Shown here one piece after another: positions 19,810-62,897 of a stretch of DNA of 64,000 nt. This stretch comes from Frankiales bacterium (GTDB lineage: Bacteria; Actinomycetota; Actinomycetes; Mycobacteriales; SCTD01). The translations under genes were made by a program, and so were the position numbers. The stretch spans positions 3,756 through 67,755 of the forward strand of contig JAOPVP010000077.1 of NCBI GenBank assembly GCA_025966135.1, read 5' to 3'. The notes beneath the pieces were generated by a model that was not told the origin of the DNA, ran no database searches, and was given only the letters and a program-made list of their open reading frames with translations. The stretch's first letter is position 1. Each line of letters starts with the position of its first letter.

Positions 19810-19933
19810 AACTACCGATCATCCTGCTCGTAGCGACGTCGGCGTGACTCTGGGTGACCGTTCCTCCAGTACAGTCGGAGTCCGTGGTCTGTCGGGTGCC
19901 TGTCTCGGCCGTTGCAGCCACGCTGGCCAGCCG

Positions 19934-39492: not shown

Positions 39493-40368
39493 TCATCCCC
39501 TGCGTTGGCGGCGGCGCCAATCGATCGGGCCTGGTCGGGCTGGCTCCGACCGCTCGCCCGGCCGGTAGGGCACCGGGATGTACTCCACGCTCGGGCGTCG
39601 GCCGCGGGGCTGGGGGTAGAGGCCCATCAACTGGCGCACCTCGTTGGGCAGATCCGCGGACACCGTGAGTCCGAGCGTGCGGGCCAGTTCGACGGTGATG
39701 GGGAAGTCGTGGGTCCAGCGTCCCTCGCTCAGGGTCTGGGCGAGCTCGTCAGCCTGCTCGGCGGGTAGCTGCCGGCGCAGCAGGCCGGCGGCGAAGTCGC
39801 GTACCTGAGTCTGCGCCTTTCGGGAGAGGTCGGCCAGGATGAAAGTCTTGTCATCGATCTCGTTGGGGTCCTTCTGCGCGATCGCATACAGGATCGAGGC
39901 GGCCGGGTACTCCCCGAGTTGCGGATCGATCGGGCCAAGCACCGCGGTGGGCGCCAACACGATACTGTCCGCGGCCAGCGCGATGAGCGTGCCGCCGCTC
40001 ATGGCGTAGTGCGGCACGAACACCGTGACGGGGGCGGGGTGCGCGGCCAGCGCGGAGGCGATCTGCTCAGCGGCAAGGACTAGTCCGCCCGGGGTGTGCA
40101 GCACCAACTGGATCGGCACCTGCTTACCAGTCATCTCGATCGCGCGGATGACCGCCTCGGAGTCGTCGATGTCGATGAAGCCGCCGAACGGGATCCCGAG
40201 GAAAGAGAACTGCTCACGGCGGTGGATCAAGGTGATCGCGCGCCCGCCGCACCGCTTTTCCAGCTTTCGCAACGTGTGAAGCCGTCGCGAGTCCAGGACC
40301 CGTTGCTGGAACAGCGGCTGCAGGCTGGAGATGATGAAGAACAACCAGAGCAGATCCAGTGGAGTCAC
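39493..40368 (-). CDS. SDH-family (serine dehydrogenase proteinase) Clp-fold serine protease
   Basis: N-terminal TM segment, then 'ITLIHRRE...IDIDDSEAVIRAI...PIQLVLHTPGGLVLAAEQIA...HYAMSGGTLIALAAD', typical of PF01972-type proteins. Confidence 0.7.
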   Translation of the reverse strand: MTPLDLLWLFFIISSLQPLFQQRVLDSRRLHTLRKLEKRCGGRAITLIHRREQFSFLGIPFGGFIDIDDSEAVIRAIEMTGKQVPIQLVLHTPGGLVLAAEQIASALAAHPAPVTVFVPHYAMSGGTLIALAADSIVLAPTAVLGPIDPQLGEYPAASILYAIAQKDPNEIDDKTFILADLSRKAQTQVRDFAAGLLRRQLPAEQADELAQTLSEGRWTHDFPITVELARTLGLTVSADLPNEVRQLMGLYPQPRGRRPSVEYIPVPYRPGERSEPARPGPIDWRRRQRRG

Positions 40369-40793: not shown

Positions 40794-41288
40794 TCAGCTG
40801 CTGGAGGACAGTCCCAGGCGCTGCCGGGCCGGCCGCAGCCAGCCGTCGAGCGCGTCGGGGGCGTCCCACTCGCTGTCGAGCAGGTAGAGACCAACGGTCG
40901 GCGTGCTGGCACCGATCTCGTTCAGCACCGGCTTGAGGAAGACCTCCGGCGCCAGCGCATGCTTCCAGTGCCCGCCGAGCATCAGGGGCACTGCCTGCAC
41001 GCCGGCCAGCGAGCCGGCACCAAAGCGGTCGAGGAACAGCTTCAGCAGGCCCGTGTAGGTGCCCTTGTACGTCGGACTCGCAACGATCACGAGCTCGCTG
41101 GCCTGGACCTGCTTCACCGCCTGGCTGACCTCCGCGTCCTCCCCGTCGAGCAGCCCGGCACCGTAGGTCGCCAGGTCGAGGTCGACGTCGGCGGGACGGC
41201 CGGTCAGCTCCCTCGCGAGCCGGAGGGCGGAGAGGCGGGTGCGCGACTGGGGCTTCGGGTTGCCGACGACGACGGTGACAGTCACCAC
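40794..41288 (-). CDS. NAD(P)H-dependent FMN reductase (SsuE/MsuE-like)
   Basis: 'VVVGNPKPQSRT...VIVASPTYKGTYTGLLKLFLD' flavodoxin-like reductase signature. The GTG start overlaps the hydrolase stop by 7 nt. Confidence 0.8.
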   Translation of the reverse strand: MVTVTVVVGNPKPQSRTRLSALRLARELTGRPADVDLDLATYGAGLLDGEDAEVSQAVKQVQASELVIVASPTYKGTYTGLLKLFLDRFGAGSLAGVQAVPLMLGGHWKHALAPEVFLKPVLNEIGASTPTVGLYLLDSEWDAPDALDGWLRPARQRLGLSSSS

Positions 41289-42028
41289 GCGCTGCTCTCT
41301 GCGCTGACGATCGGCACGAGCGACGACACGTCGCGAAGCGACTCCAGGAACGTGATGATCTCCGCGGCGACCGACCGGTGCTGCAGGTCGTTGAGCACGT
41401 CGTGATGGCCTCCGCGCACGATGACGAGCCGGGCACGGGGAAGGCCCTTGGCCGCCCGCGTGAGGGCGTCGCGGTCGGCGTACTCGTCGGCGTCGCCCAC
41501 GAGCAGCAGGTGCGGGACGTCGGCGATGCTGCCGTAGGCAGCGTCGAGCAGCGCAGCCGGGAGCGCCTCGTCGAGGGCTCCCCGCTGCAGCGCCGCGTCC
41601 TCGGACAGGACGTTGCGCTGGACCGTGCAGTGGGTCCTAGCGTCGAGCTCGTCGTCCCAGGCCTGGGCGTCGTGCGAGGCGTACCCGGGCAGGCCGGCGA
41701 GGACGACAGCGGCAGGTGACCACTCGGCTCGGGCTACCAGAGCGCCGACCGCTGCCGCACCGGAGTCGGAGCCGATCAGCACCAGCGGCGCGACCGGGTC
41801 CAGGTCTGCCACGGCCGCCGCGACCTGGTCGGCCAACCGGTCGAGCGACCCCTCGAGGTCGTCCACGTCGAGGACCGGGGTGTCGAGCACGCGAACGCGG
41901 TAGGAGTCGGCGGCGATGCGCGAGCCGAACCGCGTGTAGCTGCGCGCGGTCTCCCCGCGACCGGGCACGATGAGGACAGTTCCCCTGGTGCGCAAGCCTT
42001 CTGGGCCTACGTAGTCGTGGTCGGACAT
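41282..42028 (-). CDS. alpha/beta-fold hydrolase
   Basis: 'GTVLIVPGRGETARSY...VRVLD', nucleophile-elbow region 'LVLIGSDSGAAAV', C-terminal 'GGHHDVLND'. Confidence 0.65.
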   Translation of the reverse strand: MSDHDYVGPEGLRTRGTVLIVPGRGETARSYTRFGSRIAADSYRVRVLDTPVLDVDDLEGSLDRLADQVAAAVADLDPVAPLVLIGSDSGAAAVGALVARAEWSPAAVVLAGLPGYASHDAQAWDDELDARTHCTVQRNVLSEDAALQRGALDEALPAALLDAAYGSIADVPHLLLVGDADEYADRDALTRAAKGLPRARLVIVRGGHHDVLNDLQHRSVAAEIITFLESLRDVSSLVPIVSAESSAW

Positions 42029-42030
42029 GG

Positions 42031-43761
42031 TCAGACTCCTGCCAGTTGATCGAGCTTGCGAGGGGGTTCGAGGCCGGCGACGGCGAGACCGAGGACCACG
42101 TCCAGCACGGCACCCGCACCTGCCTCGGGCGTGCTGTCACCGCGCCAGGCCACGTGCTGGTCGGGGCGGATCAGGACGTTGCCGGCTGCGTAGAGCTCGC
42201 GCACCTCGGGACTGCTGAGGTGGATCACCGTGAAGCCCAGACCGCGGCGAGCCGCCTCGGCGACGAACGCGGCTTCGACGTCGCGGTCCGGCGTGAGGAC
42301 GAGCAGCGCGAGGTCGTTGCCGATGCGGTCGTAGAGCGTGCCGCCGTAGGGGTCGATGACGCCGTCGGGCGCGCGGTGACCCGGGCGGGCGTCGTCGACG
42401 TACACGTCCGGCCGCCAGGCGGGCTCGGACGCTAGCTGCCCGTCCTCGTACCAGAGGACGGTCGAGTCGTCGTAGCGCTCGTCGAACGTCACCCCTGTGG
42501 CGTCGATCCGATCGGCACCGAGCCGGGCGGCGATGTCGGCGCGTCGCTGGGCGGCCTCGGGGCTGAGGTCGGCGTCGTCAGGGACTCCGATCCGCCGGAT
42601 GTCGGCCAGCGCGACCTGCGACCGCTGGGCGCGCTTGAGGGCGAAGTCCGCGACCCGCCAGTTGTGCGGCCGGCGCTCCCGGTCATAGGAGTCGAGCAGC
42701 GCCTCCGAGGCCTGACCACCGAGTACGGCGGCGAGCTTCCAGCCGAGGTTCACGACGTCGCCGAAGCCCTCGCCGAGGTTGCCACCGGGGGTCCGCACAT
42801 GGGCGGCGTCACCGGTGAGCAGCACCCGTCCGGACCGGAACGTGCTGGCGATCCGGGTGGCTTGGTAGAAGGTCGTGGACGAGGCGATCTCGAGGTCGAG
42901 GTCGAACCCGAAGGCGGCCTGGGCCACCTCGACCAGCTCCTGCTCGGTAGGCGTGTGGTCCAGCGGGTACGGACCGGCGTAGACCCGCCACTCGCGGCTG
43001 CTGACCGCGGCGAGGAACCCCGACGCCTTGTCGTTGAAGACGATGTTGGTGCCGCTCGGAGCCGGGCCGACGCGGTCGGCGATGTCGCCGGTGCGGACGA
43101 TCAGCCGGAACCGCTTCTCGGTGGCGTGCTCGCCCTCGCGCTCGATGCCCGACAGCCGCCGGACCGTGCTGCTTCCCCCGTCCGCGCCGAGGACGTACTG
43201 GGACCGGACGGTGCGGGTCGTGCCGTGGTCGACGTCGAGCAGGTCGGCCTCGGCGCCGTGCTCGTCCTGCCGGAGCGCGATCAGCTGCCAGCCTCCGGCG
43301 ACGCTGACCCCGCGCTCGGCGAGATGGCCGAGGAACACCTGCTGCAGCGCGGACTGCGGACGCCGCAGGGCCTCCTCCGTCGAGTGGCGTCCGGATCCCT
43401 GACCGGTGAACGACGGCGCGCGGGTGGGAACCAGCTCGTGCCCGACGAGCGAGGTGACCAGGCGGATGCCCTTGTTCCACTCGGGAGGGAACGTCCACTC
43501 GTCACGGACGCGCTGCAGCACCCCCCAGCGCCGGAAGTGCTCGACGACACGGGGCGTGTGACCCATGGCGCCGGCCCGGATCAGGGTCGCGTTGCGCGCC
43601 CGGTCGACGACCGCGACCTTGACGCCGCGCCCACTCAGCTCGATGGCGGCGGAGAGCCCGACCGGCCCCGCGCCGACGACCAGGACGTCGACGTCAGCCG
43701 GCGGGGTCGCGACCGGGAAGTGCACGGTGTGGACGTCACGGCCACCAGTCAGCGCCGTCAC
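42031..43761 (-). CDS. FAD-dependent aromatic-ring-hydroxylase-type monooxygenase
   Basis: 'VDVLVVGAGPVGLSAAIELSGRGVKVAVVDR', 'LLTGDAAHVRTPGGNLGEGFGDVVNLGWKL', plus a C-terminal thioredoxin-like domain. 576 aa. Confidence 0.85.
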   Translation of the reverse strand: MTALTGGRDVHTVHFPVATPPADVDVLVVGAGPVGLSAAIELSGRGVKVAVVDRARNATLIRAGAMGHTPRVVEHFRRWGVLQRVRDEWTFPPEWNKGIRLVTSLVGHELVPTRAPSFTGQGSGRHSTEEALRRPQSALQQVFLGHLAERGVSVAGGWQLIALRQDEHGAEADLLDVDHGTTRTVRSQYVLGADGGSSTVRRLSGIEREGEHATEKRFRLIVRTGDIADRVGPAPSGTNIVFNDKASGFLAAVSSREWRVYAGPYPLDHTPTEQELVEVAQAAFGFDLDLEIASSTTFYQATRIASTFRSGRVLLTGDAAHVRTPGGNLGEGFGDVVNLGWKLAAVLGGQASEALLDSYDRERRPHNWRVADFALKRAQRSQVALADIRRIGVPDDADLSPEAAQRRADIAARLGADRIDATGVTFDERYDDSTVLWYEDGQLASEPAWRPDVYVDDARPGHRAPDGVIDPYGGTLYDRIGNDLALLVLTPDRDVEAAFVAEAARRGLGFTVIHLSSPEVRELYAAGNVLIRPDQHVAWRGDSTPEAGAGAVLDVVLGLAVAGLEPPRKLDQLAGV

Positions 43762-45104
43762 GACCGCACGTCCACGAGCTGGCGCGCGTGGGCGTTCTCC
43801 GGGACCGGCAGTCCGAGGTGACCGCGCAGGGTCTCGGCCTCGTACTCAGTGCGGAACAGGCCGCGTCCCTGCAGGATCGGGACAACACCGTCGACGAACA
43901 GCTCGAGCTCGGCGTTGGTGCGGAACGCGAGGTTGATGCCGTCGAAGGTGTCGGCCTCGAACCAGCTCTGGATGGTGTCCGCGACGGTCTGCGGCGAGCC
44001 GACGAACGGCGAGTGCTTGAAGTCCAACGCGGTCTCGACCACCTGGCGCAGCGAGAGGTTGTCGCGCCGCGCCCGCTCGATGATCTTCGCGGCGCCGGTG
44101 CGCCCGCCCTTCTCCGCCAGGTGGGCGACGTCCGGGAACGGCGCGTCCGGGTCGTACTGGCTGAAGTCGTGCGCGCCGAACCCGCGGCCGAGCAGGGCGA
44201 GGTTGCTCGCGAAGTCGTTGTCCTCCTCGAAGATCTCGCGCTCGCGACGCCGCGCGCCGTCATCGGTGGAGGCGACGATCGGGCCGCCGTGGATGAAGAC
44301 CTTGATGTGCTCGGGGTCGCGCCCGGCCTCGGCGGTGCGGCGCTTGATGTCGCGGTAGTACTCGTGCGCCGACTCCAGCGTGCCGCCCGGGGCGTAGATG
44401 CCCTCGGCGACCTGGGCAGCGAGGTTGCGTCCCTCCTCCGAGACGCCGGCCTGGAAGATCACCGGCTGGCCCTGCGGGGAGCGGGACAGGTTGAGCGGCC
44501 CGGCGACCCGGAAGTGCTCGCCGACGTGCTCAAGGGCGTGCAGCTTGCTCGGGTCCAGGAAGACACCTCTCTCCACGTCGGCCGGGAAGGCGTCGTCCTC
44601 GTAGGAGTCCCACAGGCCCCGGATGACCTGCACGGACTCCAGGGCGCGGCCGTACCGCGTCGTGTAGTCCAGGTGCTCGTCGAGCCCGAAGTTGCGCGAG
44701 GTCCCGGTGTCGAAGCTGGTCACGACGTTCCAGCCCGCGCGGCCGCCGCTGATGTGGTCCAACGACCCGAACCGGCGGGCCAGGTTGAAGGGCGAGTTGT
44801 ACGTCGAACTCGCCGTCCCGACGAGGCCGATGCGGCTGGTGTGGACCGCTACCGCGGAGAGCAGGGTGAGCGGCTCGAGGCGGTTCAGGTAATGCGACGG
44901 GTAGGTGCTGTTGATGAACTGGCTGTCGACGATGAACAGCGCGTCGAACAGCGCGTGCTCGGCCGCCTGTGCCTGCTGGATGTAGTAGCGGATGTCCGTG
45001 CTCGCGTTCTTGGCGATGCTCGGGTCCTTCCAGAGGCCGTGTTGGCCGGGACCGCCGACGCCGTACGGGTGCAGGGCGAGATGGAGCTTGCGGGTCAAGG
45101 TCAT
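43758..45104 (-). CDS. LLM-class flavin-dependent monooxygenase, NtaA/SnaA/DszA family (copy 1)
   Basis: 448 aa from the internal ATG. 'HGLWKDP...ALFDALFIVDSQF...LEPLTLLSAVA...LDHISGGRAGWNVVTS'. ATGA overlap with the FAD monooxygenase. Confidence 0.85.
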   Translation of the reverse strand: MTLTRKLHLALHPYGVGGPGQHGLWKDPSIAKNASTDIRYYIQQAQAAEHALFDALFIVDSQFINSTYPSHYLNRLEPLTLLSAVAVHTSRIGLVGTASSTYNSPFNLARRFGSLDHISGGRAGWNVVTSFDTGTSRNFGLDEHLDYTTRYGRALESVQVIRGLWDSYEDDAFPADVERGVFLDPSKLHALEHVGEHFRVAGPLNLSRSPQGQPVIFQAGVSEEGRNLAAQVAEGIYAPGGTLESAHEYYRDIKRRTAEAGRDPEHIKVFIHGGPIVASTDDGARRREREIFEEDNDFASNLALLGRGFGAHDFSQYDPDAPFPDVAHLAEKGGRTGAAKIIERARRDNLSLRQVVETALDFKHSPFVGSPQTVADTIQSWFEADTFDGINLAFRTNAELELFVDGVVPILQGRGLFRTEYEAETLRGHLGLPVPENAHARQLVDVRS

Positions 45105-45147
45105 GCGGGGGGTTCCTCTCGTGGGGCATGCTCTTCGGGAGTGCCGT

Positions 45148-45978
45148 TCAGGCGTGGAGCAGCGCGCGGAGAGCCGCGCGTTCGGAGCGATTGGCGGCGG
45201 CGGAGCGCAACGTGGGCGCCGAGCCGATGAGCAGTCGGGTGTAGACGTGCTGGGGTGCCGTGATGACGTCACGGGCGGGCCCGTTCTCGACGAGCTGGCC
45301 CTGGTACATCACGGCGATGCGGTCGGCGACGCCGGCGACGGAGCCGAGGTCGTGCGAGATGAAGACGAGGGAGACTTCCGCGCTGCGGAGCTCCTTGAGG
45401 ATCTCCAGCACGCCGACGCGGTTCGCGGAGTCGAGGGCGCTGACCGGCTCGTCGAGGATGATGAGCGCCGGCTCGGTGACGAGCGCACGGGCGACGGCCA
45501 CGCGCTGCCGCTGACCGCCCGAGAGTTCGCCGGGCAGCCGCGGGAGCAGCTCGTCGTCGAGGTGGACGCGGCTGAGCAGCGGCCGGATGCGGGCGACCGC
45601 GTCGGCGCGGCTGTCACCGCGGATGAGCAGCGGCTCGACGAGCGAGTCCTCGATCGTGGCGTCGGGGTCCAGGCTCCGCAGGGGGTCCTGGAACACGTAC
45701 TGGATGACGCCGCGGCGACGCAGCTCGCGCCACTTGCGCTGCGAGTGGCCGGTGACGTCCTCGCCGTCGATGAGGACCTGGCCGCGGGAGAACGGCACGA
45801 GTCCGAGGACCGCGCGGGCGAAGGTCGACTTGCCCGAGCCGGTCTCGCCGATGAGGCCGACGACCTCGCCACGTCCTACCTCGAGCGAGACGCCGTTGAG
45901 GGCCTGCCGGCGGCGACGGCGGGCGCCGTAGTGGACCTCGAGGTCGGTGACCGTCAGGACCGGGTTGTCAGTGCTCAT
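45148..45978 (-). CDS. ABC transporter ATP-binding protein (DppF/OppF-like)
   Basis: 'GLIGETGSGKST', 'LSGGQRQRVAVARAL' and 'IILDEPVSALD'. The internal ATG overlaps the upstream stop by 11 nt. Confidence 0.9.
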   Translation of the reverse strand: MSTDNPVLTVTDLEVHYGARRRRRQALNGVSLEVGRGEVVGLIGETGSGKSTFARAVLGLVPFSRGQVLIDGEDVTGHSQRKWRELRRRGVIQYVFQDPLRSLDPDATIEDSLVEPLLIRGDSRADAVARIRPLLSRVHLDDELLPRLPGELSGGQRQRVAVARALVTEPALIILDEPVSALDSANRVGVLEILKELRSAEVSLVFISHDLGSVAGVADRIAVMYQGQLVENGPARDVITAPQHVYTRLLIGSAPTLRSAAANRSERAALRALLHA

Positions 45979-46819
45979 CGAGGTACCTGTCCAGTCCGTA
46001 CTGCTCGTGCTCGGCGATGAGCATCCGGGTGTACTCGTGCCGCGGGTGCTGGAGGACCTCGGTGGTCGGGCCCTGCTCGACGACATGCCCCTCGCGCATC
46101 ACGAGGACCTCGTCGCAGAGCTGCGCGACGACGGCCAGGTCGTGGGAGACGACGAGCAGCGCGAGGCCGGTGCGCTCCTGCAGGTCGGCGAGCAGGTCGA
46201 GGATCTCGGCCTGCACCGTCACGTCCAGAGCCGTGGTCGCCTCGTCGGCGATCAGCACCGTCGGGTCGGCGGCGATCGCGGTCGCGATGAGGACGCGCTG
46301 GAGCATGCCGCCGGAGAGCTCGAAGGTGTACTGGTCGTAGACCAGAGCGGGGTCGCGCAGGTGCACGAGGGCAAGCAGCTCAAGGGCACGGTGGCGGGCC
46401 TGCCGACGGGATGCCCTGGTCTTCACGCGGATCACCTCGGCGATCTGCGAGCCGACCCGGATCGAGGGGTTGAGGTAGGACGCGGGGTCCTGGAAGACCG
46501 CGCTGATCGTCGCGCCACGCAGGTCCGTCCACTCCGCCGGGGTGAGCTGGGCGATGTTGCGGCCAGTGATGTCGATCTGCCCCCCGGAGACGGCGAAGTG
46601 CTCGGGGAGGATGCCCAGCGCCGCTCGGCAGGTCAGTGTCTTGCCGCTGCCGGACTCGCCGACGATGCCGACGACCTTGCCCGGGGTGAGCTGGAAGGAG
46701 ATGCCGTGCACGATCTCCCGGTCGTTGACCTGGTCGTAGATCCGCACGTCATGGACCGCGAGGACCACCTCGTCCGTGACCGGAGGGGCCACCACGCGCT
46801 GCTCGGAGAGAGTCGTCAT
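45968..46819 (-). CDS. ABC transporter ATP-binding protein (DppD/OppD-like)
   Basis: 'GIVGESGSGKTL', 'LSGGMLQRVLIATAI' and 'LIADEATTALD'. ATGA overlap with the permease stop. Confidence 0.9.
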   Translation of the reverse strand: MTTLSEQRVVAPPVTDEVVLAVHDVRIYDQVNDREIVHGISFQLTPGKVVGIVGESGSGKTLTCRAALGILPEHFAVSGGQIDITGRNIAQLTPAEWTDLRGATISAVFQDPASYLNPSIRVGSQIAEVIRVKTRASRRQARHRALELLALVHLRDPALVYDQYTFELSGGMLQRVLIATAIAADPTVLIADEATTALDVTVQAEILDLLADLQERTGLALLVVSHDLAVVAQLCDEVLVMREGHVVEQGPTTEVLQHPRHEYTRMLIAEHEQYGLDRYLDEH

Positions 46820-47700
46820 CCGGTCCTGCTTTCCACGGGGAGGAGGCGAGCGCCGTTGGCGCGGGCCTTGCGGGTGTTGACCAGTGCCCGTCCGTTCTCG
46901 CCGGAGACGTCGCGGATGGCGTCGGCGAGCAGGTTGCAGCCCCAGACGGTCGCCATGATCAGCGCGGCGGGGGCGATCGGCGCGTAGGGCTGGAAGTGCA
47001 GGTAGTTCAGGTCCGAGGCGAGCAGCCCGCCCCACGTCGGCGCCGGCGGCTGCACGCCGATTCCCAGGAAGCTCAGGCTCGAGACGACGATGAAGCCGAC
47101 CCCGATCGTCTGCGCGAGCGCCACCGCGATAGCGGGCAGGACCTTCACCCACACGTGACGACGTACGACCCAGCCGATGGAGGCACCGGAAATCAGGGCG
47201 GCTTCGACGTACTGCGACCGGGCGACCGCCAGGGTCGCGGCGCGAGACACCCTGAAGAACAAGGGCGAGACGAGGACGCCGACGACGAGCATCGCCTGCG
47301 TGATCCCGTTGCCGAGCAGGGCCGTGACAGCGACCGCGAAGACCAGGAACGGCAGGGCGATCAGGGTGTCGGCGAGGCGCAGGCTGGTCCACTCGAAGAC
47401 CCGGCCGAGGTAGACAGAGAGCAGTCCCGGGACGACCCCGACGACGAGGGCCACGAGGGCCACCTCGACCGAGCCGAGCACGCTGGTGCGCGAGCCGGCG
47501 AGCAGTCGGCTGGACACATCCCGGCCGAGGTAGTCGGTGCCGAGCCAGTGCTTCCAGGACGACCCGGCGAGGGTCGTCGTCGAGCTTGCCAGCGGGTCGT
47601 GCGGGGCGAGGTAGGGCCCCAGGACAGCGAGCAGGCCGATGAAGACGAGGATGCCGACGGCGAGCCGTCCGGTGCCCAGGGCGAAGACGCGACGGGTCAT
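46816..47700 (-). CDS. ABC transporter permease (DppC/OppC-like)
   Basis: 294 aa, six TM. 'YVEAALISGASIGWVVRRHVWVKVLP' is the EAA-loop region. Confidence 0.88.
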   Translation of the reverse strand: MTRRVFALGTGRLAVGILVFIGLLAVLGPYLAPHDPLASSTTTLAGSSWKHWLGTDYLGRDVSSRLLAGSRTSVLGSVEVALVALVVGVVPGLLSVYLGRVFEWTSLRLADTLIALPFLVFAVAVTALLGNGITQAMLVVGVLVSPLFFRVSRAATLAVARSQYVEAALISGASIGWVVRRHVWVKVLPAIAVALAQTIGVGFIVVSSLSFLGIGVQPPAPTWGGLLASDLNYLHFQPYAPIAPAALIMATVWGCNLLADAIRDVSGENGRALVNTRKARANGARLLPVESRTG

Positions 47701-47701
47701 C

Positions 47702-48730
47702 TCACACTCCTCGCTGCGAGGCCGGGGTGACCTTGCCCAGCACGATGTTGACGACGAGGTTGAAGGTCACGACCAGCACGATCGACACCACCAGGACGCC
47801 CTGCACGGACGGCACGTCGCCGGCCTGGGCGGAGTCGTTGGCGAACCGCCCGAAGCCCTGCAGACCGAAGATCCACTCGGTGACGACGGAGCCGCCGATG
47901 AGCGCCGGGAATTTCAGCCCCAGCACGGTGAGTGCCGGACCGGCACCGTTGCGCAGCACGTGCCGGAAGAAGATCCGGCGGTCGCTGAGCCCCCGTACGA
48001 CGGCCCCGGTCACGTAGTTCTCCTGGTAGGCGCCGATCAGGCCTGCCCGCAGCTGCCGGGCGACGTCAGCGACGGTGTCGAAGCTGAGCGCCAGCGCCGG
48101 CAGCAGCAGGTGCGCGAACCACGGCGAGGCGCCCGCAGCGAAGGGGACGTAGCCCGCCGAGGGGAACCAGTTCAGCCCCACCGCGAACACCCCGACCAGC
48201 ACGATCCCCACCACGAACGGCGGCATCACGGCGAACACCGTGAGGACGGCCGTGATGGTCCGGTCAATCCACGTCGTGCGTCGTACCGCGGCGAGCGTGC
48301 CGAGCCCGAAGCCGAACACGATGCCGATGACGAGCGCGAGCGTGGCCACCGACAGGCTGATGGCCAGGCCGTCCCCGATGAGCCGGGAGACGTCCGCGCC
48401 GTTGGACCAGCTGCGGCCGAGGTTGCCGTGGAGTACATCGTCGAACCAGGACCAGTACTGCGACAGGAACGGGCGGTCCAGGCCCCAGTGGTGCTCGATG
48501 CGGTGCACCGCCTCGGGCGTCGCGTCCTCCCCCAGCGTGATCCGTGCCGGGCTGAGCCCGCTGATCGACCGGAGCGCGAAGGTCACGAACGTCCCCAGCA
48601 GGAACACCGGCACGAAGATCGCGATCGAGCGCCCCAGGGTGAACGCCGTGCGGGTGACCGCCCGCCGCACCCTGATTAGTCCGAATGAGGGACGGCTCGG
48701 CGCGTAGCCGAGGGTCGCGCTGAGGGTCAT
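47702..48730 (-). CDS. ABC transporter permease (DppB/OppB-like)
   Basis: 342 aa. 'YVTGAVVRGLSDRRIFFRHVLRNGAGPALTVLG' is the EAA-loop region. ATGA overlap with the binding-protein stop. Confidence 0.88.
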   Translation of the reverse strand: MTLSATLGYAPSRPSFGLIRVRRAVTRTAFTLGRSIAIFVPVFLLGTFVTFALRSISGLSPARITLGEDATPEAVHRIEHHWGLDRPFLSQYWSWFDDVLHGNLGRSWSNGADVSRLIGDGLAISLSVATLALVIGIVFGFGLGTLAAVRRTTWIDRTITAVLTVFAVMPPFVVGIVLVGVFAVGLNWFPSAGYVPFAAGASPWFAHLLLPALALSFDTVADVARQLRAGLIGAYQENYVTGAVVRGLSDRRIFFRHVLRNGAGPALTVLGLKFPALIGGSVVTEWIFGLQGFGRFANDSAQAGDVPSVQGVLVVSIVLVVTFNLVVNIVLGKVTPASQRGV

Positions 48731-50274
48731 CCGATGGTCACCCCGGTCCAGTCGATGTGACCCGGGTTGGCGGGCAGGGCCGAGATGCTCTTGCTCTTCG
48801 CGTAGAGGTTCGGCGAGGAGTAGGTGAACACCAGCGCCGTGCTCTGCAGACCGGCGCGCGTCGCGTCCTGCAGGACCGTCGCGTAGTCAGCAGCATCGAG
48901 CGGGGTCTGCCGCACCTTCGCGATGGCCGCCTCGAAACCGGCGGGCTCGTATGGCGAGCTCAGGTTCAGCGGGCCGTGCGGGCCGAAGTGCGCGGTGAGG
49001 GTCTGGACCGCTGAGTCACGACCGGTCGTGCCGTAGAGCGAGAAGGCCAGGTCCTTGGCGAAGAACGGCGTCGCCCAGTTCTTGTCGACCTTGATGGTGA
49101 CGTTGATGCCGACCGCGCCGAGCTGCGACTGCACGATCTCCGCGTCCGGCTCGGCGGACGGGATGTCCAGCGTCAGCTTGATCTGGCCAGCCTTGAAGCC
49201 GGCCTCCGAGAGCAACTGCTTGGCCTTCGTCGGGTTGTACGGGTAGGGGTCGACGGACTTCGGGTCGTACGCGACGTAGCCGGGCGGGAATGGCTGGGCC
49301 GTCGCCTCGCCACTCCCGAACGTGAGCTTGTCCACGAACTCCTTACGGTTGACGGCGTACCGCACCGCGTCGACGACCTTCGGGTTCGTGAAGGGCGCCT
49401 TGTTGACGTTCAGGCTGATGTTGTTGGCGTTGAAGCCGGGCTGGATGAACGTCGCGAGCCCCGCCGCCTTCGCGGCCGCCTGCTGGCTGGGCGGGATGTC
49501 GGCGAAGTTGTAAACGCCGGTCTGCAGTCCGGAGACCACGGTCGCCACGTCGGGGGCCGAGACCAGCTGCACGTTGTCGATGTGGATGTTCTTGGCGTCC
49601 CAGTAGTTCGGGTTCTTCTTCAGGACCGCCTTGGTGCCGGGGATCAGCTCGGTCTCGATGAACGGACCTGCACCGACCGGCTTCTGGTCCAGCGCCGTCG
49701 GGTCGGCCGCCGCCTTGGGGCTGGCGATCTGGAGCACGCGCTCCCCGAACAGCAGCGGGATCTGGTAATCGGTCTGGGTCAGGTTCACGACGACGTCGAG
49801 GTCACCGCCCGTCGTGACGTCCTTGATCGAGGTGAGGTCTCCGAAGATGGCCGAGTCCTTCTGGTTCTTGGCGCGGTCGATGGCGAACTTGACGGCCGCA
49901 GCGTTCAGGGGCGTCCCGTCGCTGAAGGTCAGCCCGGAGCGGAGGTGGAAGGTGATGACATCGCCGGTGGTGTTGTACTTCCAGCTCTCGGCGAGGTCCG
50001 GGACGGCGTTGCCCTTCTCGTCGGTCTTGGTCAGGGCCGCATAGACGAGAGCGAGCTCGCGGAACTGCGCGCCGCTGCCGCCGACCACCGGGTCCCAGTG
50101 CTTCGGGAAGTAGGACGTGGCCCACTTCAGGGTGGAGCTTCCGCCGCTGGACGGGCTGACTGCCGCACCGCTGCCGGCGCAGCCGCTGACGAGGAGCGCC
50201 GGCACGGCGACCGAAGCCGCGAGGAGGGCGCCACGCCGGAGGCGGCTGGCGGGGAGCTGGGGTCGTGCGGACAT
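48727..50274 (-). CDS. ABC transporter family-5 substrate-binding lipoprotein (peptide/nickel/opine type)
   Basis: Signal plus lipobox 'LLVSGC'. 515 aa. 'LALVYAALTKTDEKGNAVPDLAESW...FHLRSGLTFSDGTPLNA' is typical of SBP_bac_5. Confidence 0.88.
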   Translation of the reverse strand: MSARPQLPASRLRRGALLAASVAVPALLVSGCAGSGAAVSPSSGGSSTLKWATSYFPKHWDPVVGGSGAQFRELALVYAALTKTDEKGNAVPDLAESWKYNTTGDVITFHLRSGLTFSDGTPLNAAAVKFAIDRAKNQKDSAIFGDLTSIKDVTTGGDLDVVVNLTQTDYQIPLLFGERVLQIASPKAAADPTALDQKPVGAGPFIETELIPGTKAVLKKNPNYWDAKNIHIDNVQLVSAPDVATVVSGLQTGVYNFADIPPSQQAAAKAAGLATFIQPGFNANNISLNVNKAPFTNPKVVDAVRYAVNRKEFVDKLTFGSGEATAQPFPPGYVAYDPKSVDPYPYNPTKAKQLLSEAGFKAGQIKLTLDIPSAEPDAEIVQSQLGAVGINVTIKVDKNWATPFFAKDLAFSLYGTTGRDSAVQTLTAHFGPHGPLNLSSPYEPAGFEAAIAKVRQTPLDAADYATVLQDATRAGLQSTALVFTYSSPNLYAKSKSISALPANPGHIDWTGVTIG

Positions 50275-50319
50275 GGTGGTGATCTCTTTTCAGGAAAGGG
50301 GTGTGTGGGTGAAGGAGGA

Positions 50320-51699
50320 CTAGGAGGCGAGGACGGGCTCGGACGGCAGGACGACCGCTTGATCGGGAGAGGCCGCAGCAGCGGCGGTGTGGCGGTTGGC
50401 AGGGATCGGTAGGCCGAGGTTGCCGCGCAAGGTGGTCGACTCGTACTCGCTGCGGACGACGCCGCGCTCCCGCAGGATCGGGAGCACCTGGTCGGTGAAG
50501 CGGGCGAACTCGGCGGGTGCGTTGACGCTGATGCTGATGCCGTCGAAGGCGCCGCCCTCGAACCAGCGCTGGATCTCGTTCGCCACCGTGAGGGGCGAGC
50601 CCACGAAGGGCGAGCGGTTGGCGTTCAGCTGGCGCTGCACGACCTGGCGAAGGGTCAGGTCGTTGTCGCGGGCCAGCTTGGTGATGGCGTCGGCATGCGT
50701 CCGGAAGCTGCGCTCGCCGAGACCGCTCACGTCCGGGAACGGCGCGTCCAAGTCGTACTGGCTGAAGTCGTGCCAGCCGAACGGTCGGCCGAGCTCGGCC
50801 AGCGCCTTGTCGAAGCTCTTGGCACCAAGGATCGCGGCCTCCTTGGCCTGCGCCTCCTCGTCGGTGTCGGCGAGGATCGGGTAGATGCCCGGCACGATCA
50901 GCACCTCGTCGGGGTTGCGGCCCTTCTCGGCAGCGCGACGACGGAGCTCGGTGCGGAAGGCGGCGGCCTGCTCGAGGGTCGGGGCGTGCGTGAAGATCGC
51001 GTCGGCGATGCTGGCCCCGAGGTCGCGGCCCTCGTCCGAGTCACCGGCCTGGAAGATGACCGGCTGGCCCTGCGGTGAGCGCTCGAGGTTGAGCGGTCCG
51101 ACGACCGAGAAGTGCTCGCCCCTGTGGTTGAGGGCGTGCTGCTTGCTGCGGTCGAAGAAGACGCCGGTCTCCTTGTCACGCGGGAAGGCGCCCTCCTCGT
51201 AGGAGTCCCACAGCCCCTGAGCGACGCGGACGGACTCGAGGGCCCGGCCGTAGCGCGTCGGGTAGTCGAAGTGCTCGTCGCGGCTGTAGTTGCCGGCCGT
51301 GCCCGCGTCCCCGCTGGTGACGACGTTCCACCCGGCGCGGCCGCCGCTGATGTGGTCGAGCGAGTAGAGGCGGCGGGCCAGGTTGAACGGCTCGTTGTAC
51401 GACGTGGTCAGCGTGCCGACCAGACCGATGTTCGTGGTGTGCACGGCGATCGCCGACAGGAGCGTCAGCGGCTCGAGGCGGCTGAGGTAGTGGTTCGGCG
51501 AGTCCGGGGTGATGAACTGGCTGTCGACGATGAAGACGAGGTCGAACTTCGCCGCCTCGGCCTCCTTGGCACGGGCGATGTACCACTGCACGTCGACGCT
51601 GGCGTCGGCGGAGACGTCGGGGCTGAGCCAGGTGTTGTGCTGACCCGGGCCACCGACTCCGAGGAGGATGGCGCCGAGCTTGAGGGTGCGGCCAGACAT
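50320..51699 (-). CDS. LLM-class flavin-dependent monooxygenase, NtaA/SnaA/DszA family (copy 2)
   Basis: 459 aa from the ATG at 51699. Collinear paralog of 43758..45104 ('FDLVFIVDSQF...LEPLTLLSAIA...LDHISGGRAGWNVVTS'). Confidence 0.85.
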   Translation of the reverse strand: MSGRTLKLGAILLGVGGPGQHNTWLSPDVSADASVDVQWYIARAKEAEAAKFDLVFIVDSQFITPDSPNHYLSRLEPLTLLSAIAVHTTNIGLVGTLTTSYNEPFNLARRLYSLDHISGGRAGWNVVTSGDAGTAGNYSRDEHFDYPTRYGRALESVRVAQGLWDSYEEGAFPRDKETGVFFDRSKQHALNHRGEHFSVVGPLNLERSPQGQPVIFQAGDSDEGRDLGASIADAIFTHAPTLEQAAAFRTELRRRAAEKGRNPDEVLIVPGIYPILADTDEEAQAKEAAILGAKSFDKALAELGRPFGWHDFSQYDLDAPFPDVSGLGERSFRTHADAITKLARDNDLTLRQVVQRQLNANRSPFVGSPLTVANEIQRWFEGGAFDGISISVNAPAEFARFTDQVLPILRERGVVRSEYESTTLRGNLGLPIPANRHTAAAAASPDQAVVLPSEPVLAS

Positions 51700-52009
51700 G
51701 GGAGAGCCTTTCGGGGCGAGGGGAACACGGCGCATCCAGCGGATGCCGACGGGTCCGCGGCGTGCGGAACCGGCGCTGAAGTGCTGAGGGCGCGGCAGCA
51801 GCCGCGCATCGCGCTACAGGGACGTCTGCGTCAACGACACAGCGAGGAGCCCTGGCGGGCGTAGTCGAGCCAGCGACAGCACGTGAGCATCACGTAGGTG
51901 GGCCGACTCATGTCCATGAGGTTGCTGGACCCCGCCCAGGAAGTCCAACGACGCTTCGTGATGGGGGGTCATCACCAAGCCTGATCAATTACCTAGTAAG
52001 TTGGTAGGC

Positions 52010-52921
52010 ATGAACAGGACCCTGGACATCGGACCGCTGCGCAGCTTCGTCGCCGTGGCCGACTGCGGCGGCTTCCAGCGCGCAGCGGGGTCGCTGCACC
52101 TGAGCCAGGGCGCGATCAGCCAGCACGTACGCCGGCTCGAGGCCGCCGTCGGCCGACCCCTGGTCGTGCGGCACGGCCGCGGCTCCCGCTTCACCCCTGA
52201 CGGCGAGCAGCTGCTGGCGCAGGCCCGGCTCATCCTGGACCTCCACGACGTGACCCTCCTCGCCTTCGACGTCGACACCGAGCAGACCCTCGTCATCGGG
52301 TCGACCGAGCACGCAGCAGCACAGCTGCTCCCCCACCTGTCGTCCGCCCTCGAGGACGAGCTGCCCGGCTACCGCGCGCGCTTCCGCGTCGACCGCGGGT
52401 CGCAGCTGCGCGAGGGCCTAGCCGCTGGACGCATCGACCTCGCTCTGCTGCTCGGAGCGACCGAGGACCCGCACGCGGTGCAGGTCGGCGAGCTCGAGCT
52501 GACCTGGTACGCCGCTCCTTCCTGGACGCCTCCGATCTCCGGACCGATGCCTGTCGTGGCCTTCGACGACCCGTGCGTCTTGCGTACGAGGGCTCTAGAA
52601 ACCCTTGCGCAGCAAGGGATCCCAGCCGAGATCAGCGCTGAAGCAACGCAGCTCGCCGGAGTCCAGGCTGGCGTCGGGGCAGGTCTCGGCGTCGCGCTCA
52701 TGGCTACGCTCGGCCAGCCCCCGGAAGGACTGGTGGCACGCCACGACCTGCCCGCGCCTCGGCCGTTGCCGCTTGCGGTGTGGTCCAGGCACGGTCTGAG
52801 CGCCGGCCTCACGAGCTCCGTCGCCGACGCCGTCCGGCAGCTGCTGAACCCGTCCCACGAGGTGTCCACCCTCCACCCGCTCGTCCCGACCCAGCCGACC
52901 GCTTTCGCGCGGGGTGCCTGA
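52010..52921 (+). CDS. LysR-family transcriptional regulator
   Basis: 'LRSFVAVADCGGFQRAAGSLHLSQGAISQHVRRLEAAVGRPLV' is the LysR HTH. Divergent from the ten-gene operon. Confidence 0.9.
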   Translation: MNRTLDIGPLRSFVAVADCGGFQRAAGSLHLSQGAISQHVRRLEAAVGRPLVVRHGRGSRFTPDGEQLLAQARLILDLHDVTLLAFDVDTEQTLVIGSTEHAAAQLLPHLSSALEDELPGYRARFRVDRGSQLREGLAAGRIDLALLLGATEDPHAVQVGELELTWYAAPSWTPPISGPMPVVAFDDPCVLRTRALETLAQQGIPAEISAEATQLAGVQAGVGAGLGVALMATLGQPPEGLVARHDLPAPRPLPLAVWSRHGLSAGLTSSVADAVRQLLNPSHEVSTLHPLVPTQPTAFARGA

Positions 52922-53466
52922 TGCCCGCTCTCCACGTCCCTGACGGCTCGAGCCCTGACGACCTGGTCCGCACACCCAGTGGCGTCCTGCTGCCGACCGC
53001 CATCGACCCGTTCCACCGTCGGCTCCACCACGTGGCGCCGGCCGCGTTGATCGGCCAAACCGCGCAGACCAGCGGCATGCAGCGTCGCGAGGCCATCAGC
53101 GGCAAGACGGTCGGCGCGCAGCACCTCTGGATGGGGCAGACGCACGTCCCCGCCTCGACCAGTTCGGGGAACCACCACCACGGCGCTTCGGAGACCGCAA
53201 TCTACGTGGTCAGCGGGACGCCGGTGTTCGTGTTCGTTGACCTTGAAGGCGAGGAGCCCGTCGAGACGCGGGTCCAGACAGCACCGGGTGACTACGTCTT
53301 CGTCCCCCCGTTCGTCCCGCACCGCGAGGAGAACCCCGACCCGGTCGTCGAAGCGATCGTCGTCATAGCCCGAACCACGCAGGAGTCCATCGTCGTGAAC
53401 CTCGACCACCTCGACTGGGCCGAGATCTGGAGCAGTGGCGGGAACGCGCCCGGGGCCGCCACCTGA
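52921..53466 (+). CDS. cupin-domain protein
   Basis: 'GNHHHGASETAIYVVSG...GDYVFVPPFVPHRE' are cupin motifs 1 and 2. The ATG overlaps the LysR stop (TGATG). Confidence 0.7.
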   Translation: MPALHVPDGSSPDDLVRTPSGVLLPTAIDPFHRRLHHVAPAALIGQTAQTSGMQRREAISGKTVGAQHLWMGQTHVPASTSSGNHHHGASETAIYVVSGTPVFVFVDLEGEEPVETRVQTAPGDYVFVPPFVPHREENPDPVVEAIVVIARTTQESIVVNLDHLDWAEIWSSGGNAPGAAT

Positions 53467-53585: not shown

Positions 53586-54209
53586 TCACGCGGCGAGGGC
53601 GAGGTCGATCATCGCCGCAGCCGCCGACCGCGCCGACCGGGCAGCCGATTGGTTATGGTCGAGCCGGGCCGACACGGTCGCGCCGTCGTAGAGCAGGACC
53701 AGTTGCTGGGCCAGTACCTCGGGCTGGCCGACCCGGGCCTCGCGCGCCAGGTCGGTGAACAGACCTCGGATCCACGCCCGGATGCTCTCGCACACGGTCT
53801 CGACCACGTCGCCCGGCTTGGCCTCAGCGCTGGCGTTCATGAACGCACAGCCGCGGAAACCCGGCTCGGCGAACACCTCGTCGAGCATGTCGAAGACGCC
53901 AAGCATCCGGTCCCGTGGGTTGTCGTACTCCGCGAGCGTGCGAGTGATCCGAGCCTGCTGGGCGTCTCGCCGGGCGGAGAGGTAGGAGCGGACCAACTCG
54001 TCCTTGCTGCCGAACGTGTTGTACAGCGAAGCCTTGGCCACGCCGGCCCGCTTGATCACCCGGTCGATGCCGACCGTGTGCACGCCTTCGCTGTAGAACA
54101 GCTCGTTGGCCGCGGCCAGCAGCCGCTCGCGGGCCGAGCCTTGATCCAGGGTCTTCCTTCCGGGCGCCGGCATGGGTTGACAGTACCAGACAGGTCTGTC
54201 TACCGTCAT
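53586..54209 (-). CDS. TetR-family transcriptional regulator
   Basis: 'RERLLAAANELFYSEGVHTVGIDRVIKRAGVAKASLYNTFGSKDELV' is the TetR HTH. The alternative start ATG at 54173 would place both operators upstream. Confidence 0.88.
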   Translation of the reverse strand: MTVDRPVWYCQPMPAPGRKTLDQGSARERLLAAANELFYSEGVHTVGIDRVIKRAGVAKASLYNTFGSKDELVRSYLSARRDAQQARITRTLAEYDNPRDRMLGVFDMLDEVFAEPGFRGCAFMNASAEAKPGDVVETVCESIRAWIRGLFTDLAREARVGQPEVLAQQLVLLYDGATVSARLDHNQSAARSARSAAAAMIDLALAA

Positions 54210-54228
54210 GGGCCAGACAGACCTGTCT
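54188..54228. promoter_or_regulatory. twin 14-bp palindromic operators AGACAG-NN-CTGTCT (likely TetR sites)
   Basis: AGACAGGTCTGTCT (54188-54201) and AGACAGACCTGTCT (54215-54228), both flanked by CC..AC, centres 27 bp apart. They lie in the tetR/MFS divergent region. Confidence 0.55.
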
Positions 54229-54270
54229 ACTCAACGGGAGGGCACGCCGAATGACCGAGGGAAGCAGGCG

Positions 54271-55521: not shown

Positions 55522-55725
55522 CCTGTCTCAGGTGACGGCGCCGCGTACGCGCTGCTTCGAGGCTGGCCAAGCAGCTCGAGTACTGCCGATCAACGTGAGG
55601 TAGAAGAGCATCGCTCCAAAGCGCGGACTTGTTCGCCCGGCGCTGCCGGTTTCGCCGGTCGCGCGCGATGTCCGCCCTCACCTCCTTCCGCCCAGGGCTA
55701 ATTCCTACTGCTTGCATAGGCAAAG

Positions 55726-56610: not shown

Positions 56611-56703
56611 CCAACGGCTGACCGCATCCTTCCGCTCAGTTGATCGTTTAACCTAGGGGTCCAATAGGATTTACCGACTGCCCCCAGCCAGAAGGATCCT
56701 CAC

Positions 56704-62493: not shown

Positions 62494-62897
62494 TTGGGCG
62501 AGCTGAGCGAGGTCGGAGGCGTAGGCGCGGCGGGTGTGGCTGCTGCGGCCTGCTCGAGATCGTCCAGGAAGTCCCCGACCACGGCGCTCAACAGCGCCGG
62601 ACCGGCACCAACCTGCGATAAGTGATGGACGGTGCCGGCGATGTGAGTCCCCCTTGAGCGTGCGGTAGCCCCGCCTGCTGCCTAGATTCTGTGATAACTC
62701 ATCCTATCGCAGGAACTTGGTGACTTGAGTGGGTCGGCGGCAATCGAGGTCCACTTTCACTACGCGTACGCAGGTTGACCGTCGATCAGGCTCCGGCGCG
62801 GGCCTGGAGAGCGGTGATGATCGACCCAACACGGAACGTGGGTGCCGATCGATAACCTGCGCTTCTAGGACACTCGAGTGGGAGCAGGCACCAACAC

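Follow-up and report, generated by a model that had tools for sequence, protein, structure and literature searches.

Among the described systems closest to the locus presented here is the ytmI/cmo operon of Bacillus subtilis (SnaA, CmoO, CmoI, CmoJ/YtnJ, SndA, TcyJKLMN), whose luciferase-like monooxygenase (LLM) CmoJ cleaves the C-S bond of N-acetyl-S-alkylcysteine sulfoxide in a route of cysteine salvage (PMC10863075). The CmoJ homologue YxeK performs the C-S cleavage of N-acetyl-S-(2-succino)cysteine (PMC9706529). Within 64,000 nucleotides of the genome of a Frankiales bacterium known only as a metagenome-assembled genome (assembly GCA_025966135.1, contig JAOPVP010000077.1, positions 3,756 to 67,755; this whole stretch is called the window), we analysed a cluster of ten minus-strand genes that combines two CmoJ-like LLMs, LLM1 and LLM2, with a peptide-type ATP-binding cassette (ABC) importer, and the divergent lysR and cupin genes next to it. 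We found that this operon is not a member of any characterised pathway and that its logic is that of the sulfate-starvation two-component monooxygenase operons and of B. subtilis cysteine salvage. It is probably an operon for sulfur or cysteine limitation that scavenges an organosulfur compound, and it is headed by a conserved small open reading frame (ORF) for which we propose the role of a cysteine-sensing attenuator peptide.

The cluster shares with the cmo operon an ABC importer, a flavin reductase and an NtaA-type LLM for C-S cleavage. It differs from it in having neither an acetyltransferase nor an M20 deacetylase, in an importer that is of the peptide/nickel and not of the amino-acid type, and in the addition of a class A flavin adenine dinucleotide (FAD) monooxygenase and of a hydrolase with a putative Asp nucleophile. 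The cmo operon is regulated by CymR and YtlI, whereas a LysR regulator and a leader peptide are predicted to control the operon of the window. A second group of relatives, ssuEADCB, msuEDC and sfnFG, has in common with it a reductase, an LLM, an ABC importer, proteins low in sulfur and, by prediction for the operon of the window, control by a LysR-family regulator. In contrast to these, both LLMs of the window belong to the long NtaA/DszA/CmoJ group (the SsuD, MsuD and SfnG models give only 40-80 bits) and the transporter is of family 5 and not of the SsuA/TauA type. The original prediction could not place the cluster in a described pathway, and this still holds: all NCBIfam equivalogs scored below cut-off, and the literature search found no characterised equivalent cluster and nothing beyond general evidence for a response of NtaA-annotated LLMs to sulfur limitation.

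Genes were called from an ORF listing and from Pfam and NCBIfam scans of the window. The scans bear out the ten closely packed genes with the content and order first proposed, and ORF positions together with Pfam place lysR and the cupin divergent from them (Table 1). By ORF coordinates, the junctions among the ten genes are overlaps of 4, 4, 11, 4 and 7 nucleotides and gaps of 45, 1, 43 and 2 nucleotides. The importer is made up of an SBP_bac_5 binding protein, two BPD_transp_1 permeases and two ATPases with an oligo_HPY tail (Pfam), and no importer equivalog (Nik, Dpp, Opp, Gsi, Cnt) reached its cut-off in NCBIfam. The arrangement is a two-component one, with a separate FMN_red gene inside the operon, and many orthologous clusters are without this gene. 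The gene content thus supports the earlier idea of import coupled to flavin-dependent oxidation with a dedicated reductase.

Comparison of the window proteins with 80 genome loci by tblastn (loci are numbered with the prefix L) showed that the conserved unit consists of the divergent lysR, LLM1, the binding protein, the two permeases and the two ATPases. This core is syntenic in dozens of genomes and, counted as lysR-cupin on one side and LLM1 with the transporter on the other, spans more than 15 actinobacterial genera. The lysR gene is divergent from LLM1 in about 30 loci and the cupin lies next to lysR in 18, where its identity is 74-81%; across many actinobacteria it is 72-84%. LLM1 is 75-89% identical in Frankia, Parafrankia, Jatrophihabitans, Cryptosporangium, Kineosporia, Actinokineospora, Amycolatopsis, Actinoplanes, Hamadaea, Phytohabitans, Nocardioides and Cellulomonas, about 65% identical in Microbacterium, Paenarthrobacter, Pseudonocardia and Nakamurella, and 61-63% identical in Pseudomonas. 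One locus, from a Pseudonocardiales metagenome-assembled genome (L004), carries all ten genes in identical order. Elsewhere LLM2, the FAD monooxygenase, the hydrolase and the reductase vary in presence and are therefore accessory. Accordingly, the ten genes are not supported as one functional unit: the gene neighbourhood that is conserved is the six-gene core (LLM1 and the five transporter genes) with lysR-cupin, whereas the last four genes come and go. The cluster as a whole can hardly be due to chance, and it is an operon widely conserved among actinobacteria yet uncharacterised.

The proteins of the operon are strikingly poor in sulfur. Cys and Met together account for 14 of the 3595 residues of the ten operon proteins (0.39%), compared with 1.94% in 14 neighbouring proteins (binomial P = 2.7e-16). 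Both LLMs have no Cys and no Met besides the initiator, the 576-residue FAD monooxygenase has no Cys and a single Met, and the only Cys of the binding protein is the lipobox residue that takes the lipid anchor. The depletion holds in orthologues, with a median of 0 internal Cys or Met for LLM1 (120 sequences) and median Cys+Met contents of 0.21% for the binding protein and 0.18% for the FAD enzyme. The LysR and cupin proteins are without such depletion. A comparable economy is described for Rhodococcus during sulfate-limited biodesulfurisation, when proteins rich in Cys and Met are avoided and paralogues with little or none are favoured (PMC8557817). Furthermore, Rhodococcus and Gordonia induce LLMs annotated as NtaA when sulfate is absent. 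By analogy, we infer that the operon of the window would be induced under sulfur limitation.

Next, the kinship of the two LLMs was examined. They are 59% identical to each other, and the best solved relative of both is B. subtilis YtnJ/CmoJ, with 420 bits for LLM1 (46% identity) and 377 bits for LLM2; an uncharacterised Burkholderia protein is also close to both among solved structures. The other solved relatives of LLM1 fall well behind (DszA 227, DmoA 205, LadA 184 and EmoA 179 bits), and RcaE and HcbA1 are likewise distant from both LLMs. Judged by pairwise identity, a Pseudomonas enzyme is closer to LLM1 than CmoJ is, at 62% identity. In Pseudomonas fluorescens (L069, 8955-11308) the gene of this orthologue overlaps by 4 nucleotides the stop of a gene for a sulfonate-binding protein of the SsuA family, so that by their coordinates the two would be translationally coupled, and the pair is sulfur-poor relative to its own neighbours. 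In the Pseudomonas loci (L059-L081), the LLM1 orthologue and the SsuA-type gene form a two-gene unit between genes for resistance-nodulation-division efflux and genes for nucleoside catabolism, with no transporter membrane component nearby.

The substrate had been put down as organosulfur or organonitrogen. The organosulfur half of this proposal is favoured because of the sulfur-poor proteins, the kinship with CmoJ, the SsuA-linked Pseudomonas orthologue and the Cys codons of the leader peptide described below, and organonitrogen is disfavoured. Catabolism of an aminopolycarboxylate or another organonitrogen compound (of the nitrilotriacetate, NTA, or ethylenediaminetetraacetate, EDTA, type), in which the LLMs would cleave C-N bonds of an imported chelator or opine as NtaA and EmoA do, is in our view very unlikely. 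It would explain why both LLMs fall in TIGR03860, the family that bears the NtaA name, and why the transporter parts score best against the Nik/Cnt models (nickel, staphylopine); these scores, however, are all far below cut-off. A Dpp-like transporter is paired with EmoA/EmoB in the EDTA cluster of Chelativorans. The EmoA/EmoB and NtaA/NtaB clusters share the LLM family name with the operon, but with 179 bits, where CmoJ has 420, EmoA is one of the remotest solved relatives, and the enzymes of those clusters break C-N bonds to gain carbon and nitrogen, a use for which a sulfur-economy signature is not expected. Depletion of Cys and Met, a Cys-containing leader and an SsuA-linked orthologue would all be unexpected for such a pathway.

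A desulfurisation of aromatic or xenobiotic organosulfur compounds resembling the 4S pathway (DszABCD) fits the sulfur-limitation signals equally well. The substrate would be an aryl thioether, sulfone or sulfonate, with the FAD enzyme and the LLMs responsible for its oxidation and opening and the hydrolase for the release of sulfite, by analogy with DszC, DszA, DszB and DszD. The two systems share a two-component flavin monooxygenase of the same superfamily branch, a hydrolytic last step, a reductase and the acquisition of sulfur, and the FAD enzyme of the window is of the aromatic-ring hydroxylase kind: its nearest relatives are RebC (205 bits), 2-hydroxybiphenyl monooxygenase (about 108 bits) and other aromatic hydroxylases. 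Nevertheless, many clusters lack the FAD monooxygenase and the hydrolase, both of them accessory, DszA is a distant relative, neither DszB nor DszC has a homologue here, and the operon has an importer, whose peptide-type binding protein would suit hydrophilic and not aromatic hydrophobic substrates. We consider this reading improbable.

The accessory enzymes have features of their own. A short third LLM adjoins LLM2 in related clusters of Nocardioides (L016, 17934-18974) and Actinokineospora (L017, about 19400-20450); its best model is TIGR04027 (LLM_KPN_01858), whose cut-off it misses at 268 bits. The Nocardioides copy takes the position of the FAD monooxygenase, which suggests that the FAD enzyme and the short LLM are alternative solutions for one step, and this replacement recalls CmoO of B. 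subtilis. The hydrolase is modelled by AlphaFold with a pLDDT of 89 and finds its nearest folds among monoacylglycerol lipases (TM 0.70-0.73). An ordinary serine hydrolase (Hydrolase_4, with a G-x-S-x-G nucleophile) was ruled out since Asp88 replaces Ser at the strand-turn-helix elbow (G86-x-D88-x-G90-A); the Asp is found in 35 of 36 homologues and the flanking Ser is not conserved. H209-D210 and D181 are invariant, and so is the sole Cys of this otherwise sulfur-poor protein, C134 in the motif R-T-H-C (36 of 36 homologues). The signal peptide of the binding protein carries S-R-L-R-R-G-A-L-L before the lipobox; this twin-arginine-like motif suggests export of the lipoprotein by the Tat route. 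That the LLMs are SnaA-like and the FAD enzyme RebC-like raised the alternative of tailoring genes from a secondary-metabolite cluster, a resemblance at the level of families only. We regard it as exceedingly unlikely, since the window is devoid of core biosynthetic genes and the cluster encodes an importer with its lipoprotein binding protein, is conserved across many orders and in Pseudomonas, and has sulfur-poor proteins.

We then turned to the region between lysR and LLM1. The operon had been given as ending at 51699, which is the start codon of LLM1. Neither the leader nor the operon 3' end gave a hit in consensus scans for promoters and terminators; the promoters deviate from the Escherichia coli consensus and were revealed only by comparative alignment, in which 29 lysR-LLM1 intergenic regions were used. 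The pattern TT[GA]GAC-N18/19-nAnnnT-N6/7-ATG matches 26 of these 29 regions, and GTCCAAC is the most conserved 7-mer. The ATG of the pattern is, for the majority of the regions that match, the start of a small ORF. By this geometry the operon transcript is probably leaderless and starts from the ATG of the small ORF, so that position 51911 is most likely the start of the transcription unit. In Cryptosporangium japonicum and two Actinoplanes genomes (L009, L026 and L029) the small ORF and the spacer behind it are absent, and the ATG of LLM1 stands at the position set by the promoter, which supports the assignment of the transcription start. In these three loci LLM1 itself would be leaderless, and they would amount to a natural deletion of the attenuator. 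The lysR mRNA is also most likely leaderless, judged from the recurrent spacing of its predicted -10 box and start codon.

Next to the operon promoter, on its upstream side, lies the longest inverted repeat of the region (Table 1). In at least 15 loci its core, GTGATG-N5/6-CATCAC, precedes the operon -35 box by exactly 9 nucleotides. The dyad extends from about -47 to -64 relative to the operon start and covers the -35 region of lysR, and we propose it as the recognition site of the LysR protein, overlapping the promoter of the regulator. Two other palindromes had been singled out, TTAC-CTA-GTAA (51989-51999) at the lysR start and GCATCC-AGC-GGATGC (51732-51746) in the leader. Both are present in the sequence, but neither is conserved in orthologous leaders. 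The first overlaps the predicted lysR -10 box and is not palindromic in orthologues; the second is missing from close relatives and is not rarer than chance, perfect stems of at least 6 bp with loops of 3-8 nucleotides occurring at 0.97 per 300 nucleotides across the window. Both were therefore rejected as features.

The small ORF that would open the transcript had gone unnoticed. It has 26 codons, with Cys codons at positions 11 and 12 (TGC TGT) and at position 25, next to the stop. A regular expression anchored on its R-W-L-D motif detected it in 21 of the 29 lysR-LLM1 intergenic regions, the window included, and a six-frame scan of all loci found it once per locus, always heading the operon. 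In one locus (L023) the operon that it heads begins with the binding protein and not with LLM1. A metagenome search with a DNA pattern for T-C-C-R-W-L-D gave 56 matches, of which 50 were unrelated chance matches and the others showed the full peptide on six contigs (one, L101, duplicates L091), all of them adjoining LLM1, the binding protein, lysR or the cupin. Two other Cys-Cys small ORFs of the window (36124 and 55049) were dismissed, both lying inside long ORFs.

Altogether 27 distinct peptides were compared, from the window, 21 other genome loci and 5 distinct metagenome contigs. Eighteen are exactly 26 residues long, 26 contain RWLD, and 26 have a Cys among the last three residues (21 of the 22 genome-derived copies). 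Cys-Cys precedes RW in 16 of all 27 copies and in 11 of the 22 genome-derived ones; the latter is the unbiased count because the metagenome pattern demanded Cys-Cys. The codon positions differ in entropy (0.60, 0.44 and 0.84 for positions 1, 2 and 3) and pN/pS, the ratio of nonsynonymous to synonymous variation, is 0.45. The amino acids of the motif stay fixed while their codons vary (Arg CGC/CGT/CGG/CGA, Leu CTC/CTG/CTT/TTG, Asp GAC/GAT), and all internal indels are of 9 nucleotides and in frame. By these measures the small ORF bears the signature of translation. Rfam gave no match at the gathering threshold in the window, and in the leader, at E <= 10, only a chance hit to ROSE_3 with 12.5 bits.

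Short leaders with Cys codons have been described in other actinobacteria. Seliverstov et al. (2005) predicted Cys leader peptides in Mycobacterium, Propionibacterium acnes and Bifidobacterium longum, with Cys near the stop and no terminator (PMC1262725). The polycysteine leaderless small ORFs of Mycobacterium smegmatis were established by experiment as cysteine-responsive attenuators, in which stalling of a ribosome starved of Cys-tRNA relieves attenuation; pairing between small ORF and Shine-Dalgarno sequence need not apply at every mycobacterial locus (Canestrari et al., bioRxiv 10.1101/834739). With these leaders (Ms5788A and those of PMC1262725) the small ORF of the window has in common an unannotated short reading frame with Cys codons, a probably leaderless start, a stop-adjacent Cys, a cysteine-related operon and no canonical terminator. 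In contrast to them it has 1-3 Cys codons and a strongly conserved RWLD, occurs in several orders and not in one genus, is combined with a LysR regulator, heads a scavenging and not a biosynthetic operon, and has no detected pairing to the downstream ribosome-binding site.

The untranslated spacer between small ORF and LLM1 varies from 84 to 370 nucleotides among loci. Its C/G ratio is 1.43, compared with 1.17 in the LLM1 coding sequence, and is the higher one in 20 of 21 loci; this C-rich composition is compatible with a loading region for Rho. Single-sequence folds were not significant (leader z = -1.0, operon 3' end z = 0.04). From the tests of pairing, of structure 3' of the small ORF and of spacer composition, we favour stalling at the stop-adjacent Cys codon as the mode by which attenuation would work. 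Arrest by the nascent peptide may play a part as well, RWLD being conserved more strongly than the Cys pair. An involvement of Rho, similar to that in tna, has been proposed for actinobacterial Cys leaders (PMC1262725).

That proposal also speaks for a different account of the small ORF, in which R-W-L-D would act as a nascent-peptide arrest that senses a small molecule in the ribosome tunnel in the manner of TnaC, or the ORF would encode a small protein with a function of its own. The tna operon has a long spacer, and TnaC senses tryptophan. The window resembles this layout in its long, variable, C-rich spacer with no conserved terminator, and the near-universal RWLD with its free synonymous variation, set against Cys-Cys in 16 of 27 copies, points the same way. 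We know of no arrest motif of RWLD sequence. Since Cys within the last three codons is conserved equally with RWLD and the other features of the operon point to a cysteine or sulfur signal, we see this account as possible, though on the unlikely side.

Several observations weigh against a cysteine-controlled organosulfur operon. Among genome-derived copies of the small ORF only half have the Cys-Cys pair and 3 have no Cys there, and with RWLD more conserved than the pair, the signal may involve more than Cys sensing. When the small ORF was tested in 21 loci for pairing with the ribosome-binding region of LLM1, the result was no better than for shuffled sequences; the leader has no canonical terminator, and the first 48 nucleotides 3' of the small-ORF stop give a weak structure signal (mean z -0.62, with loci that are non-independent). 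Partners of the CmoJ pathway, a GNAT acetyltransferase and an M20 deacetylase, were not found in the operon or its flanks. The nearest solved relatives of the binding protein (AapF, AgaA, NikA and DppA) have unrelated ligands. The LysR protein is not a recognisable orthologue of CysB or Cbl and matches no NCBIfam equivalog at cut-off, its best match being LrhA (124 bits against a cut-off of 530). Lastly, the sulfatase neighbourhood of the operon (see below) is not conserved with the cluster.

With these points taken into account, organosulfur scavenging under sulfur or cysteine limitation is the explanation we prefer. Under this hypothesis, the family-5 lipoprotein and the ABC transporter would import a small hydrophilic organosulfur molecule, and we would guess at a cysteine derivative substituted on its sulfur, or at a conjugate or short peptide of such a derivative. 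FMNH2 (reduced flavin mononucleotide) would come from the SsuE-like reductase, and LLM1, with LLM2 where present, would cleave the C-S bond oxidatively and return the sulfur to the cysteine pool. The FAD monooxygenase may contribute a preparatory oxygenation, for example an S-oxidation, and the unusual hydrolase a finishing step, both as lineage-specific additions. Control would have two layers. In the first, the divergent LysR would bind the conserved dyad, which adjoins the -35 box on its upstream side. In the second, a shortage of Cys-tRNA would make ribosomes stall at Cys codons 11, 12 and 25 of the small ORF, and the stalled ribosome would protect the beginning of the spacer against Rho or a local hairpin, so that transcription or translation could run on into LLM1.

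A bolder version can also be put forward, which we think doubtful. In it the RWLD peptide would represent a new class of sulfur-status sensor, shared by several actinobacterial orders and acting through a lack of Cys-tRNA at the stop-adjacent Cys codon or through a ligand-dependent arrest of the nascent chain, with shielding of the C-rich spacer from Rho or a terminator hairpin, for the salvage of cysteine from N-acyl- or peptide-linked S-substituted cysteines with CmoJ-like LLMs and an Asp-nucleophile hydrolase of the monoacylglycerol lipase fold that would be without precedent. Candidate substrates, if that were so, would include the mercapturic acids that actinobacteria excrete after mycothiol-dependent detoxification.

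Table 1. Positions in the window of the genes of the operon, of the divergent lysR-cupin pair and of the elements between them.
Feature	Position	Strand	Basis and remarks
FMN_red, SsuE-like NAD(P)H:FMN reductase	40794-41288	-	Pfam/NCBIfam; accessory
Alpha/beta hydrolase	41282-42028	-	Pfam; accessory
Class A FAD monooxygenase, RebC-like (PRK06126 type)	42031-43761	-	FAD_binding_3 and Rng_hyd_C; accessory
LLM2	43758-45104	-	TIGR03860, 479.3 bits (cut-off 279.7); second CmoJ-like monooxygenase; accessory
ABC ATPase, DppF/OppF type	45148-45978	-	Pfam/NCBIfam; start codon selected
ABC ATPase, NikD/CntD/DppD type	45968-46819	-	Pfam/NCBIfam; start codon selected
ABC permease, DppC/NikC type	46816-47700	-	Pfam/NCBIfam
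ABC permease, DppB/NikB type	47702-48730	-	Pfam/NCBIfam
SBP_bac_5 lipoprotein (family 5, peptide/nickel/opine type)	48727-50274	-	Pfam and NCBIfam; lipobox VSGC
LLM1	50320-51699	-	TIGR03860, 481.8 bits (cut-off 279.7); NtaA/DmoA family, CmoJ-like clade; core gene
Spacer between small ORF and LLM1, untranslated	51700-51830	-	C-rich, G-poor; GC hairpin 51790-51807; LLM1 Shine-Dalgarno GAAAGG 51707-51712
Small ORF, 26 codons, MSRPTYVMLTCCRWLDYARQGSSLCR and stop	51831-51911	-	Conservation and coding signature; previously unnoticed
Operon -10 box CAACCT	51919-51924	-	18 nucleotides from the -35 box; 7 nucleotides upstream of the small-ORF ATG at 51911
Operon -35 box TTGGAC	51943-51948	-	Comparative alignment
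Dyad GCTTCGTGATG-N6-CATCACCAAGC	51953-51980		Longest inverted repeat of the region; contains T-N11-A
lysR -10 box TAAGTT, predicted	51997-52002	+	7 nucleotides before ATG 52010; TAnnnT-N7-ATG recurs in orthologous loci
lysR	52010-52921 (ORF 52001-52921)	+	HTH_1 and LysR_substrate; ATG 52010 probable true start
Cupin	52921-53466	+	Cupin_2; metal-binding motifs HxH...E and P..H...N; ATG overlaps the lysR stop

The overlap of the cupin start codon with the lysR stop implies, by position, that the cupin would be translationally coupled to lysR. No sequence relative of the cupin was found in the PDB and no match in NCBIfam, and its AlphaFold model has a pLDDT of 48.

Beyond the cupin, the stretch 53586-59918 encodes a TetR regulator, a transporter of the major facilitator superfamily (MFS) and, after these, a formylglycine-generating enzyme (55726-56610) and two overlapping sulfatases (56704-58374 and 58371-59918). 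None of these genes is conserved with the cluster. The last three lie 4 kb from the operon, and we considered them as local context for sulfur; their proteins have a normal content of Cys and Met. By their gene families they would make up a second module beside the operon, for the scavenging of sulfur esters. On the other side, a gene for a ClpP-like serine protease of the SDH type (39493-40368, minus strand) follows the reductase gene at 425 bp on the same strand; it is not conserved with the cluster, and no terminator was detectable between the two genes. The window has a G+C content of about 69-70%, which falls to 0.64-0.68 at 16000-40000 and 62000-64000, compared with 0.69-0.72 in most of the rest. 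The genes at 16000-40000 are unrelated to sulfur (a thiamine pyrophosphate enzyme, LuxR-type and PucR-type regulators, YceI and an MFS sugar transporter), and a fusion of erythromycin esterase and phosphoribosyltransferase is found at 33604-35664.

Taken together, the analysis goes beyond the original prediction in pointing to sulfur over nitrogen, to a six-gene core with four additions, and to a hidden leader peptide, a dyad and two back-to-back promoters as predicted from comparison of the loci. The informative element sat in a 300-bp stretch that had been taken as intergenic, which is a lesson for annotation. Most sulfur in soil is organic, and the access of actinobacteria to it, including that of the nitrogen-fixing Frankia, is poorly mapped; a highly conserved operon of this kind offers a clear target for phenotyping on sulfur sources and for ligand screens. 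The conserved RWLD gives a handle to tell stalling for want of charged tRNA apart from arrest by the peptide. The leader small ORF would widen ribosome-mediated cysteine sensing, shown so far only in mycobacteria, to Frankiales, Pseudonocardiales, Micromonosporales and Propionibacteriales.

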